Shown: one piece after another, positions 34,271-60,161 of the stretch
Position numbering within the stretch: the first letter of the stretch is position 1
How the letters are laid out: each line of letters opens with the position of its first letter
Sequence record: PZ496581.1
Strand: one strand, 5' to 3'
DNA from: a phage
Length of the DNA: 64,000 nt
Program-made: the position numbers and the translations under genes
The notes under the pieces: generated by a model
What the model saw: only the letters and a program-made list of their open reading frames with translations
Told to the model about the DNA's origin: nothing
Database searches by the model: none

Positions 34271-34903
34271 TCACAGTACGTTAGTTACAAGGGTAATGAT
34301 TTCTTTAGACACATTAGGGAAGTCAATGTAAGTATATTTACCACCGATCTTAATCTTAACATCATTTTCAAGAGAAGTAAACAGCTTTGATTCAGTTTCT
34401 GACATGTTGTATGCAAAGATTCTAAGAGAACCATCTCGACGAATTTCGATCTGACGAATACCTAGAACTCGTTTTGCAAATCGAACTTCCAAGTTACTAC
34501 GGTTTTCACCAATTTCTTTAACTTCAACTTTATCTTTAATATTTTCAAAAACAAAGTTTGCTAATTCATGCATTTCAGGAGTAACTCCACGTGCTTTTCT
34601 AGTGTTACGTTTCTGAAGAAGTTCTGGAGCATTTTCTTGAGCAAATAAGTCTGCAGCTTTTTGGATAATATCCATTGCTTCGCCTGTTGCTACAAGTCCA
34701 TCACCGGATTTTTCGACTAAACCTTTCTTAATCAATACACCAATGTTAGAGTTAACAACCGATGCATTGTATTCCGCTTCCAGAGCTTCACGGACATTGG
34801 CAGCAGTGGTGAAGTTGTTCTTAATGATATAAACCATTATTGCAGCAGTTTTTTCATTCAGAGCGTTTTCAGAAGCTTTGATGATGTAAGTAACTTTAGA
34901 CAT
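34271..34903 (-). CDS. motA: MotA middle-transcription activator (210 aa)
   Basis: MSKVTYIIKASENALNEKTAAIM...NSNIGVLIKKGLVEKSGDGL... near-identical to remembered T4 MotA. Confidence 0.9.
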   Translation of the reverse strand: MSKVTYIIKASENALNEKTAAIMVYIIKNNFTTAANVREALEAEYNASVVNSNIGVLIKKGLVEKSGDGLVATGEAMDIIQKAADLFAQENAPELLQKRNTRKARGVTPEMHELANFVFENIKDKVEVKEIGENRSNLEVRFAKRVLGIRQIEIRRDGSLRIFAYNMSETESKLFTSLENDVKIKIGGKYTYIDFPNVSKEIITLVTNVL

Positions 34904-34940
34904 TTTATTTCTCCAAATTAGTATTTGTTTTGATAGGTCT

Positions 34941-34969
34941 ATAATATCATGTTTGAAGCAAAAGTAAAC
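34941..34969 (-). promoter_or_regulatory. T4-type early promoter for motA (-35 GTTTAC, 17 nt, -10 TATTAT)
   Basis: Near-identical copy of the module at 35263..35291. Confidence 0.45.
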
Positions 34970-35007
34970 TTTATTTTGGGCTCTTTTTCCAAAAGCCCTG
35001 GTAAAAT

Positions 35008-35223
35008 TTACAAACTCATTTCTTTAATAAGGCCAATAAGTTTTGCCTTTTTAGAACGAAGCTTTTCTAAACGATGTCCATTTGAACCGCGAACCACTAA
35101 AGAATTGATTTCAACTTCTAAGAAATTTAATTCTTCAACAAGTGCTTTACGGGGAGCATTCATACCAGGTTTAACTTTACCGAAACGAGTAGTTGTGTTT
35201 TGGGTTAATTTCATTTTAGACAT
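35008..35223 (-). CDS. Hypothetical basic protein (71 aa)
   Basis: Track ORF flanked by two near-identical promoter modules. Confidence 0.45.
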   Translation of the reverse strand: MSKMKLTQNTTTRFGKVKPGMNAPRKALVEELNFLEVEINSLVVRGSNGHRLEKLRSKKAKLIGLIKEMSL

Positions 35224-35262
35224 TTTATTTCTCCAATTTGGTTGTTTTGTTTTGATAGGTCT

Positions 35263-35291
35263 ATAATATCATGTTTGAAGCACATGTAAAC
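35263..35291 (-). promoter_or_regulatory. T4-type early promoter (-35 GTTTAC, 17 nt, -10 TATTAT), duplicate of the motA promoter
   Basis: The ~35-nt core ttgataggtctataatatcatgtttgaagca recurs 320 bp away. Confidence 0.45.
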
Positions 35292-35316
35292 TGTTTTGTG
35301 AGAAAAATGCACAAAA

Positions 35317-35332
35317 GGGAGCCGAAGCTCCC
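35317..35332 (-). terminator. UUCG-tetraloop hairpin downstream of gene 52
   Basis: gggagc-cgaa-gctccc followed by UUUU on the minus RNA. Confidence 0.45.
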
Positions 35333-35408
35333 TAATCATGTTTGTCCAACCAATACAGCCAAATCACTAGTGCAGCTATTGCACCGAGAAATCCTAAGGC
35401 TAGGGCAC

Positions 35409-36734
35409 TCAAAGTGCCTCCAAGTCTTTAGTGTACTCTATCACAACATCAGTAGACTTCCAATACTCATTTTCTTCTTTCTTAGCTTTAGCTTCTTCTG
35501 CTAGTTTACGTGCTTCATCGGAAGTGATATGGAAGATGTTAAGACCTACCAGTTTATCGACATGTTCTTTATACATTTCGATTTGTGCTAGCTCTTCAGT
35601 CAAAGCTTTACGAGTCTTGCCCTGAATCACAATTTCGCCACTGATAACTTTTTTGATGAAGTGTGCCTTAGCAAAAGCAAGTTTAAATGCTTTTTCAGAT
35701 TCAAGGATTTTATTGTCAATACGTTTCTGAACGTAAGTCTTACGGACTTCAACAAAATCTTTGATTAAGTCCACTACGTTATCGTAGACCGCTAATTTAC
35801 CCTTTTCATTAATCACTGTGATGTTTTGTGAACGACGTTCGATGAGACTAAAATCTTTCATGATTTTTTCATGACGTAGCTCTTCATCATCAGGAAGCGA
35901 GTACTCTTTACGGAACTTCACCTTAAACCCAAAGCCGTGTTCACCACAATCATCTTCCCATGAGATTAGACCTTTGTCTTCCAACGGGTCAAGAACCTTA
36001 CTCACATACGTTTCACGGTCGAATTTATATGGGATTTCAGTTATCTGCATTTGAGTGCGAGATGTGAACTTATACGTTCCGTGAATCTCATAACGCCCAT
36101 CAACTTCATGTACTTCACCACGGAATTCCGGGAATTCAACTTTTGGCTTAGTGACATTTTTACCTTGAAGAGCTTGTAATACAGCCTTTTTTACCGATTT
36201 AAAACTATGAGGCAGAATATTTGTTGCGTAACCGGTTGCAATACCAGAGACGCCATTCAAAAGAACTGTCGGAATAATAGGAAGATAGAATTTTGGTGGA
36301 ATGTGTTCTTTATCTTCATGAGCTGGAGCATATTCAGTATCTTTATATACGTTATAGAAATTTTTACTTACACGAGCAAAAATATAACGAGATGCTGCAG
36401 CTTTTTGGACTGTTCGAGAACCAAAGTTGCCTTGGCCATCTAACAGTGGATAGTTGTTGTTCCATGTGTTAGCCATCAATGCACCTGCATCTTGTGCAGA
36501 ATATTCACCATGGTGATAACCTAAATCTGCAACACCGCCTGCAATTGACGCAAGTTTATGAAATTTTTCTTTATTACCACGAGCCAAATCTAACGCACGA
36601 TGAACCACAAAACGTTGAACCGGCTTAAATCCATCAATCATGTTTGGGATTGCACGGTTTTCAACGGTGTACATCGCATATGCTAAGGCTTCGTTATCAA
36701 TAATACTTTTTAGATTACGAGAATTCAATTGCAT
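35409..36734 (-). CDS. 52: gp52 DNA topoisomerase II medium subunit (GyrA-like), 441 aa
   Basis: DGFKPVQRF, catalytic-Tyr region AASRYIFARVS and DGQGNFGS motifs. Confidence 0.9.
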   Translation of the reverse strand: MQLNSRNLKSIIDNEALAYAMYTVENRAIPNMIDGFKPVQRFVVHRALDLARGNKEKFHKLASIAGGVADLGYHHGEYSAQDAGALMANTWNNNYPLLDGQGNFGSRTVQKAAASRYIFARVSKNFYNVYKDTEYAPAHEDKEHIPPKFYLPIIPTVLLNGVSGIATGYATNILPHSFKSVKKAVLQALQGKNVTKPKVEFPEFRGEVHEVDGRYEIHGTYKFTSRTQMQITEIPYKFDRETYVSKVLDPLEDKGLISWEDDCGEHGFGFKVKFRKEYSLPDDEELRHEKIMKDFSLIERRSQNITVINEKGKLAVYDNVVDLIKDFVEVRKTYVQKRIDNKILESEKAFKLAFAKAHFIKKVISGEIVIQGKTRKALTEELAQIEMYKEHVDKLVGLNIFHITSDEARKLAEEAKAKKEENEYWKSTDVVIEYTKDLEAL

Positions 36735-47564: not shown

Positions 47565-47593
47565 ATAATACCAAAACCAGAGGAGAAGTAAAC
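47565..47593 (-). promoter_or_regulatory. T4-type early promoter (-35 GTTTAC, 17 nt, -10 TATTAT) nested in a 9-bp inverted repeat that pairs with the downstream Shine-Dalgarno
   Basis: 5' arm CUCCUCUGG lies in the -35/-10 spacer; 3' arm CCAGAGGAG (47545..47553) contains the GAGGAG ribosome-binding site of 47014..47538. Confidence 0.45.
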
Positions 47594-51615: not shown

Positions 51616-51768
51616 AATATTTTCCTCTGTCTTACGGACGTTAAGGTCATTTAGCTGATAAGCTTATAATATCATGCCCTCAGGTAGTGTACACTCTTTT
51701 TTCATAAAATGCTTTAATTTTTTATGTGTTATAATGGTTCTGAGTTCCATCCGGTTATTCCAATTCAG

Positions 51769-54057: not shown

Positions 54058-54302
54058 TCGCAGCTCCCTGAGCTTGAACCACAATCAGAATAACTTGACC
54101 CAGAATCACCAGGCCAAGACGATACGTATGAATGATTATAACTTGAAGAGCTTGAAGCATTAACATGTTTTGTTTTTGGACGAACAACTTCTTCCATCAT
54201 TCCGTCACCGATATATTCCCAACTTTTTTCGTGTGTATCAGGAATAGGCATCATACCTTCGCCTGGTTTAACAGCAAACAACTTCTTCAGTATCGTAAGC
54301 AT
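54054..54302 (-). CDS. Hypothetical protein with Ser-rich C-terminal tail (~82 aa)
   Basis: Track ORF 54054..54377 trimmed to MLTILKK; C-terminus NASSSSSYNHSYVSSWPGDSGSSYSDCGSSSGSCE. Confidence 0.4.
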   Translation of the reverse strand: MLTILKKLFAVKPGEGMMPIPDTHEKSWEYIGDGMMEEVVRPKTKHVNASSSSSYNHSYVSSWPGDSGSSYSDCGSSSGSCE

Positions 54303-60132: not shown

Positions 60133-60161
60133 ATAATAACACAACTACTGGAGAAGTAAAC
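60133..60161 (-). promoter_or_regulatory. T4-type early promoter (-35 GTTTAC, 17 nt, -10 TATTAT) nested in a 12-bp inverted repeat that pairs with the downstream Shine-Dalgarno
   Basis: Arms at 60142..60153 (in the spacer) and 60113..60124 (contains the GGAG of 59789..60106). Confidence 0.45.

Follow-up and report, generated by a model that had tools for sequence, protein, structure and literature searches.

A pair of putative PeSL-type promoter cassettes around an optional small gene upstream of motA in an RB69-like phage

The motA locus of the RB69-like (T4-type) phage of sequence record PZ496581.1 raises the question of why one promoter sequence occurs twice in close succession, once in front of motA, the gene for the activator of middle-mode transcription, and once in front of a small open reading frame (ORF) of 71 amino acids, hereafter named ORF71. 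The stretch of DNA analysed (hereafter the window) comprises 64,000 nt, and all positions refer to it; every gene located between 33 and 37 kb is on the minus strand. The first-pass annotation had interpreted this arrangement as a promoter-plus-gene cassette duplicated or inserted as a unit. The explanation favoured here, with a probability of roughly 0.8, is that the two repeats constitute a pair of cassettes of the PeSL type, and that recombination between repeats gains, loses and exchanges ORF71. PeSL (promoter-early stem-loop) elements are compact cassettes combining terminator and promoter that lie on either side of ORFans in T4-type phages and mediate the insertion, deletion or replacement of these ORFans by homologous recombination (PMC2839356).

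The repeat pair and ORF71

The 31-mer TTGATAGGTCTATAATATCATGTTTGAAGCA occurs exactly twice in the window, at positions 34930-34960 and 35252-35282; no further match with three or fewer mismatches was present in the window, and none was obtained in 100 dinucleotide-preserving shuffles. The duplicated core described in the first-pass annotation is thus real, and the full repeat proved to be longer than claimed, since it comprises 84 nt in one copy (34895-34978) and 86 nt in the other (35215-35300), with a single 2-nt indel. Identical bases were found in 76 of the 86 alignment columns, including uninterrupted matches of 37 nt and 22 nt. The promoter cores of the two copies are 322 nt apart, and the spacing of 320 bp originally given applies only to the part containing the Shine-Dalgarno (SD) sequence and the start codon (320 nt). 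On the minus strand both copies contain GTTTAC(A/T), a 17-nt spacer, a TG located one base 5' of the -10 and the -10 hexamer TATTAT, in agreement with the -35 and -10 elements first assigned to them. A consensus scan detected both promoters (10/12 and 9/12 matches, with the extended -10 TG present).

Copy A (35215..35300, minus strand), delimited by sequence alignment and the consensus scan, is the promoter module for ORF71. It contains the -35 GTTTAC at 35286-35291, TGn at 35269-35271, the -10 TATTAT at 35263-35268, a predicted +1 at about 35256, the GGAG SD at 35231-35234 and ATG TCT AAA at 35215-35223. Copy B (34895..34978, minus strand), defined in the same way, is the promoter module for motA, with the -35 GTTTAC at 34964-34969, the -10 TATTAT at 34941-34946, a predicted +1 at about 34934, the GGAG SD at 34911-34914 and ATG TCT AAA at 34895-34903. 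The order of elements is the same in each copy: an A/T-rich lead-in, GTTTAC, spacer, TGn, TATTAT, AGACCTATCAAAAC, a short A-rich leader, GGAG, AAATAAA and ATG TCT AAA. Hence, the repeat spans the promoter, the entire 5' untranslated region (UTR) and the ribosome-binding site, and extends through the third codon of ORF71 and of motA, both of which begin with MSK.

T4-type early promoter elements are present in both copies, and copy A is orthologous to the T4 motA early promoter; its upstream flank (terminator, T-run and CACAAAACAGTTTACA) is orthologous to the region located 5' of T4 motA and RB69 motA. From the consensus and this orthology it is strongly inferred that the two copies act as early promoters for ORF71 and motA. 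Promoters of the same type are frequent in the window (8 under strict and about 21 under relaxed settings, all on the minus strand, many of them with hairpins overlapping the -10), and the spacer of the two copies is absent from the other six strict promoters.

Each copy is preceded by a stem-loop. An intrinsic terminator is predicted after gene 52 and the small ORF that follows it (35303..35333, minus strand), where the G+C-rich hairpin GGGAGC-UUCG-GCUCCC is followed by the U-tract UUUUGUGCAUUUUU; its RNA folds with -15.7 kcal/mol (z -3.3), and it lies directly 5' of copy A, of which it forms the stem-loop. The counterpart of this terminator is annotated as rho-independent in SA79RD, ATK47 and PhAPEC2, and the hairpin and T-run located 5' of the T4 motA promoter are orthologous to it. 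The second hairpin (34964..35011, minus strand) lies between ORF71 and copy B, with an upper stem of 8 bp at 34978-34998 and a folding energy of -12.2 kcal/mol (z -2.9). A longer fold adds an A/U-rich lower stem (GUAAAUUUUA/UAAAGUUUAC), which contains the stop codon of ORF71 as well as the copy B -35. After the hairpin comes UUUUGCUU, the U-run being supplied by the spacer of the copy B promoter. A terminator-like element and a promoter therefore overlap at this point. Pairing in this hairpin was conserved in 100% of the cells in five distinct sequences from Mosigvirus, Dhakavirus and Tequatrovirus, with a compensatory A-U/G-C pair (G-U intermediate in VR5) and one change from C-G to U-G, and WebGeSTer annotated it as a terminator in SA79RD.

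The gene between the two modules, ORF71 (35008..35223, minus strand, ATG start), is present in the ORF list as the basic 71-aa ORF originally reported beside motA, with an isoelectric point of 10.6 and 15 K+R versus 6 D+E residues. It belongs to phrog_6200 (1.6e-39), a PHROG of unknown function, and matched no Pfam family. Among 5.8 billion proteins, the homologues formed just eight clusters, none of them below 72% identity; when 1.8 billion representatives were searched with a profile, only ORF71 itself (one 50% cluster) and spurious coiled-coil matches were retrieved. In the AlphaFold2 model a disordered basic tail (residues 1-22) and a two-helix hairpin are predicted (pLDDT 76), and Foldseek comparison of this model with PDB and BFVD yielded, apart from the Bp7 orthologue of ORF71, nothing but hairpins of designed or generic type. 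Comparison with the Dhakavirus homologues gave a ratio of non-synonymous to synonymous substitution (dN/dS) of 0.17-0.25 with a dS of about 1.0-1.4, the values for motA being a dS of 0.94 and a dN of 0.24. A dN/dS of about 0.2 and a dS similar to that of motA argue that ORF71 is a real, conserved ORFan under purifying selection where present, which has probably been inherited alongside motA since the split between Mosigvirus and Dhakavirus. In annotation, ORF71 (phrog_6200) should be treated as a real, optional early gene.

According to the favoured explanation, each cassette would consist of a hairpin, a T4-type sigma-70 early promoter and a 5'UTR with the GGAG ribosome-binding site. Right after infection the host RNA polymerase would start at both copies, and ORF71 and motA would be separately promoted immediate-early genes with a shared leader and translation start context. 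The hairpin after ORF71 would probably attenuate read-through or stabilise the ORF71 message; lying over the -35 of copy B and conserved, it would separate the ORF71 and motA units, and both a contribution of the upstream promoter to motA expression and a regulatory consequence of the cassette for motA are no more than possible. The evolutionary part of the explanation is supported by the comparison of relatives, in which the 84-86-nt direct repeats behave as substrates for phage homologous recombination. Crossovers between them delete ORF71, with a single chimeric module as the product; ORF71 is inserted by the reverse reaction or by recombination with a relative present in the same cell, and non-crossover exchange homogenises the copies (gene conversion). 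The 52-motA interval is thus a small cassette-exchange hot spot, with ORF71 as its optional ORFan cargo.

Variation of the modules among related phages

Relatives were drawn from GenBank phage records; a search of IMG/VR for motA loci added just two. About 156 genomes of Mosigvirus coliphages (RB69-like, T4-type) match the 2.6-kb stretch around the motA repeats with 98-99% identity. ORF71 was detected by tblastn in 94 phage records, 76 of which are of the Mosigvirus type (at least 90% identity) and 17 of the Dhakavirus type (72-78%), the remaining one showing 87% identity. Therefore, 76 of the approximately 156 Mosigvirus records contain the gene and about half are devoid of it, as are RB69 and T4. 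Both states coexist within single ICTV species: in mar005p1, APCEc01 has ORF71 and G2469 does not, and in JS09 the same applies to JS09 and SSE1, respectively. When genomes were clustered by the flanking motA or gene 52 sequences, those with and without ORF71 were interspersed.

Precisely the ORF71 segment is missing in RB69, ECTP3 and about half of Mosigvirus, which keep a single chimeric module. In order to follow the origin of its parts, four markers distinguishing copies A and B were used, namely the upstream flank, the 4 nt after GTTTAC (ATGT or ACGT in A, TTTT in B), the UTR (AAAACAACCAAA in A, ATACTAATT in B) and the codons after ATGTCTAAA. In RB69, as in PTK and pEK20, flank A and an A-like 4-nt patch are joined to UTR B, with motA after ATGTCTAAA. 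In ECTP3, phiE142, SSE1, phiC120, G2469, S143_2, PNJ-9 and one IMG/VR contig, the flank, the 4 nt and the UTR are all of the A type and motA again follows ATGTCTAAA. AV112 is a mosaic in which flank A, a B-type 4-nt patch and UTR A precede motA after ATGTCTAAA. The junction-class counts are upper bounds, with NHEP11-type genomes, which have two copies, also matching the query for the ECTP3-type junction. Each of these arrangements corresponds to the expected outcome of one crossover at a different point of the repeat, and at least two independent exchanges, probably more, have therefore occurred. The ORF71-less state of RB69 is probably derived.

The two copies also appear to have exchanged sequence within genomes. 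NHEP11 has the rare -10 TAGTAT and an A-type UTR in both copies, resulting in a 74-nt perfect repeat; VR5 has its private TTAT in both, and SA79RD has TTTT in both. The two cores of JS98 are identical, and Bp7 has the same SD context in both copies. At the level of genera, both Mosigvirus copies contain CTTCAA...TATTAT and, in most Dhakavirus, both contain CTTTAA...TACTAT. The occurrence of rare variants in both copies of one genome, as in NHEP11 and VR5, is indicative of gene conversion. With the 4-nt patch excluded, copies A and B of one genome differ on average by 0.75 per 36 nt, less than the 2.3-2.5 found between orthologous Mosigvirus and Dhakavirus copies.

Expansion of the array was found in IME08 (HM071924.1, locus L019, ~500-1230), where three tandem modules are located 5' of motA. 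The UTR of the first module is repeated exactly in the second, which is predicted to drive a 73-aa ORF (MKTLNINSFFYN..., phrog_13302) placed between the ORF71 homologue and motA. The -35 of the first IME08 module is GTATAC in place of GTTTAC. In the T4-like Klebsiella phage vB_KpnM_Biddle_MM4 (locus L027, ~250-490), the related early promoters GTTTACTTTGCTTTCAAAACAGG... and GTTTACTTCTGCTTCAAACGTG... bracket a different, 30-aa membrane ORF directly 5' of motA, which indicates that this interval accommodates an optional small cargo in another genus too.

A transfer between genera is suggested by three Tequatrovirus genomes, BGP (168.7 kb), UoN_LDJ77_1 and Maryam. In all three, the segments comprising gene 52, motA.1, terminator and promoter, and motA itself, resemble T4 at about 99% identity. 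The T4-type promoter is separated from motA by an insert with about 94% identity to JS98, which comprises ORF71 from its SD, the hairpin and the sequence up to GTTTACTTCTGCTTTAA of the second promoter. The two promoters of these ORF71 carriers are not duplicates of each other, with 17 differences in 40 nt. A Dhakavirus-like segment between T4-like flanks, together with non-duplicate promoters, indicates that the mobile unit is the gene with its trailing hairpin and the following promoter, put behind the resident motA promoter, which would then drive ORF71. The proposal of a cassette duplicated or inserted as a unit therefore holds in that relatives lack or gain the ORF71 segment, but where the transferred unit can be delimited it is gene, hairpin and promoter rather than promoter and gene.

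The possibility that the Tequatrovirus insert was an assembly chimera was considered, as UoN_LDJ77_1 and Maryam are only 111-113 kb long, and was rejected because the full-length BGP shares the junctions; moreover, the junction sequences are not stretches common to T4 and JS98. The motA reading frame of Maryam stops about 85 nt past the start and is followed by unrelated sequence, which may be due to a deletion or to an assembly problem.

Alternative explanations

Several points weigh against exchange between PeSL-type cassettes as formulated above. Transcript-start data for RB69-like phages were not found in the literature. The individual events may have been either losses or gains, and the ECTP3-class junction may derive from window-type or NHEP11-type parents or represent the recipient state for an insertion. 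The figures that suggest concerted evolution are small counts from 12 genomes. The hairpin after ORF71 may fail to terminate transcription, owing to its A/U-rich base and a run of only four U residues, and it was not called by a simple terminator scan. Covariation in this hairpin is not significant alone (142 of 500 shuffles, five distinct sequences).

It might be argued that independent early promoters have come to resemble each other through a strong T4-type consensus, given that all the early promoters of this phage share GTTTAC, TG, TAnnAT and AG(A/T)CCTATCAA after the -10. This is scarcely credible, since the copies also agree in the spacer, which lies outside the consensus, in the UTR, in the SD and in three codons, with exact runs of 37 and 22 nt, a similarity without any match in the 100 shuffles and with a spacer not shared by the other six strict promoters of the window. 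A common origin of the copies may also be explained by one ancient tandem duplication in situ, with ORF71 arising or being captured between them, one later deletion and no ongoing exchange. The location of ORF71 at the same place in Mosigvirus and Dhakavirus, its dS of 1.0-1.4 versus 0.94 for motA, which fits an old vertical inheritance, and the A-type and B-type UTRs, recognisably orthologous across both genera, are in line with such a history. Nevertheless, we regard it as quite improbable. One deletion does not account for at least two junction classes and mosaics among the ORF71-less genomes, nor for the presence of both states inside single species, interspersed in the flank-based clustering, and the absence of exchange conflicts with the private variants common to both copies. 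The Tequatrovirus promoters are not duplicates of each other (17 of 40 nt differ), yet a Dhakavirus-like cassette lies between T4-like flanks, and IME08 contains a third module with other cargo.

A different view is that the identity of the core has been kept by selection for a protein-binding site rather than by recombination, the repeats being a shared operator through which MotA or an early factor would shut both promoters, with ORF71 as a co-regulated partner. The two copies (34941-34969 and 35263-35291, minus strand) each have a spacer with the MotA-box-like motif TTTGCTTCA, which ends 7 bp from the -10. The MotA box consensus, which the motif matches, is (a/t)(a/t)(a/t)TGCTTtA located 12 +/- 1 bp upstream of the -10, and motA- infections raise the expression of several early genes (PMC2988021). 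TGCTT(C/T)A is found in the spacers of Mosigvirus and Dhakavirus, in both copies, and also in the motA promoters of Klebsiella phage Biddle_MM4. Among about 19 other early-promoter-like sites of the window, TGCTT or AAGCA falls within the spacer of only one, and in the motA promoter of T4 a core of inverted orientation, AAAGCA, occupies a similar position. Furthermore, only about 2-4 nt of the 40-nt core differ between genera whose flanking genes diverge by about 28%. The distance of 7 bp, however, means that the box does not constitute a middle promoter; Serratia phage X20 has a degenerate TGCATTA at this place; and the TAGTAT of NHEP11, the TTAT of VR5 and the chimeric single modules require recombination anyway. 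As a substitute for recombination an operator thus appears unlikely, and it is compatible with exchange between PeSL-type cassettes rather than a replacement for it. A MotA-dependent middle promoter was itself rejected, as TTTTGCTTCA is present 7 bp from TATTAT instead of 12 +/- 1 bp and the -35 GTTTAC is present. Properly spaced middle-promoter sites occur elsewhere in the window (n=7), at 51708 on the plus strand and at 54161, 45693, 24258, 21114, 17131 and 3906 on the minus strand. As a speculative extension, with little weight, MotA, alone or with AsiA, could bind the candidate TTTGCTTCA, which is out of register by about half a helical turn, and shut its own promoter. ORF71, with its copy of the core and leader, would be co-switched; in that case it could be an accessory of the early-to-middle transition that has gone unrecognised.

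Across about 175 sequenced genomes, the motA locus provides a natural series of unusual completeness, which covers two-copy states, one-copy states (two junction classes plus a mosaic), a three-copy state, homogenised copies and a move between genera. The interval is short, easily amplified and located beside an essential regulator, which makes it convenient for measuring how fast repeats mediate gain or loss of genes and undergo gene conversion in T4-type phages. It is also suited to asking whether excised circles are formed, and whether an extra early unit before motA shifts the timing of the early-to-middle transition.

The surrounding locus and comparison with known systems

The order of genes on the minus strand is gene 52, a 26-aa hydrophobic ORF, ORF71, motA and an arn.4-like gene, which equals the T4 order 52 - motA.1 - motA - arn.4 plus one additional gene. 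Gene 52, encoding the medium subunit of topoisomerase II (35409..36734, minus strand), is a 441-aa ORF with matches to phrog_551 (2.6e-216) and Pfam DNA_topoisoIV (2.8e-77), labelled gp52 in relatives; as the upstream neighbour it fixes the locus as the T4-type 52-motA interval. The 26-aa hydrophobic ORF MSALALGFLGAIAALVIWLYWLDKHD (35332..35412, minus strand) is preceded by a GGAGG SD, and its TTG start overlaps the TGA of gene 52 as TTGA. It occupies the place of T4 motA.1 (49 aa, which likewise overlaps the gene 52 end) and is unannotated in RB69, ECTP3 and several more relatives; JS98 and Bp7 have at this position an unrelated 34-aa membrane peptide (phrog_16377) with an ATGA overlap. The 210-aa MotA protein (34271..34903, minus strand) was identified through Pfam MotA_activ (2.4e-39) and MotCF (2.1e-8) and through phrog_1345 (4.1e-90). 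In Bp7 (NC_019500.1, locus L005, 788-1422) motA is annotated as two adjoining coding sequences of 426 and 210 nt, a split suggestive of a frameshift or a sequencing error.

Inverted repeats with one arm in the spacer and the other just 3' of the -10 were observed at many early-promoter-like sites of the minus strand (about 60160, 58642, 47592, 38370, 37858, 8319, 6193, 2608 and 2164), for example CTCCTCTGGTT...AACCAGAGGAG at 47592 and TCTCCAGTAGTTG...CAACTACTGGAGA at 60160. These sites match the PeSL subclass in which the stem-loop overlaps the -10. The SD is often part of the 3' arm, and transcripts reading through from upstream would then be the only ones in which the hairpin could form and mask it.

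The T4 motA promoter is a close counterpart of copy A. The early promoter and leader of T4 motA go back to Uzan, Brody and Favre (1990), as cited in PMC3014915 and PMC1702504 and summarised in PMC2988021. MotA of T4 is produced early, and RegB cleaves its mRNA in the GGAG of the SD (PMC2988021; PMC1702504), this mRNA being a good RegB substrate (PMC2988021). The T4 promoter resembles the modules of the window in its position after the gene 52/motA.1 terminator, in the flank TTTTCACAAAAC(G/A)GTTTACA and in a leader with the GGAG SD and ATG TCT AAA GT(A/T) ACT TAC. It differs in being single, in having AACCAAAGCATACTGTGG TACTAT as spacer and -10, and in being devoid of ORF71. GTTTAC is the early -35 consensus of T4 and RB69, and in RB69 there are 57 predicted early promoters, 13 of them before novel ORFs (PMC1524935). 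The strong RegB consensus is GGAGRAYARAA, and the RegB of RB69 is described as divergent (PMC3014915). Both leaders of the window carry GGAGAAAUAAA, which agrees with that consensus at just 9 of 11 positions. They were predicted to be unstructured (-2.2 and -2.6 kcal/mol, z about 0.3).

The morons of lambdoid phages are autonomous promoter-gene-terminator units inserted between conserved genes. ORF71 resembles them as a small, variably present gene with its own promoter and a terminator-like hairpin between conserved genes. At the motA locus, however, the flanking regulatory elements themselves would be the substrates for homologous recombination, and the cargo is a predicted immediate-early lytic gene instead of a lysogenic-conversion gene.

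PeSL elements agree with the motA locus in structure and in distribution among relatives. They were first proposed in 2010 from one phage pair, RB49/phi1 with ORFan192 (Arbiol et al., PMC2839356), and were extended in 2014 to the T4/PST and KVP40/nt-1 pairs (Comeau et al., PMC4122927); neither article mentions motA or RB69. Both copies in the window agree with the T4/PST promoter consensus TTTACW-N17-TAYWAT (PMC4122927), have an A/T-rich upstream region and are adjoined or overlapped by a stable stem-loop. Both are intergenic. In copy A the TAG of the small ORF is followed by hairpin, promoter, GGAG and the ATG of ORF71, and in copy B the TAA of ORF71 is followed by hairpin, promoter, GGAG and the ATG of motA. 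The two elements flank an ORFan, many such motifs occur in the window, and the elements mark indels, the ORF71-less relatives of the RB69 and ECTP3 classes carrying one chimeric element, as does the ORF-less relative in the published example (PMC2839356). Some differences were also found. The modules described here are located directly 5' of the core regulatory gene motA and not in a large hyperplastic region, the repeat enters the first three codons, and the downstream hairpin overlaps the -35, with the promoter spacer serving as the U-run. For RB49/phi1, mini-circles and the activity of promoter and terminator have been shown experimentally; at the motA locus the corresponding activities are predicted ones. 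On the other hand, this locus adds several junction classes, homogenisation within genomes, a three-module array and a transfer between genera. At the level of sequence, the defining features of PeSL elements are thus present at the motA locus. The architecture belongs to a class already described, and is in this respect less unusual than the first-pass annotation implied; PeSL-type modular shuffling accompanied by gene conversion, as proposed here for the motA locus, is an already described mechanism.

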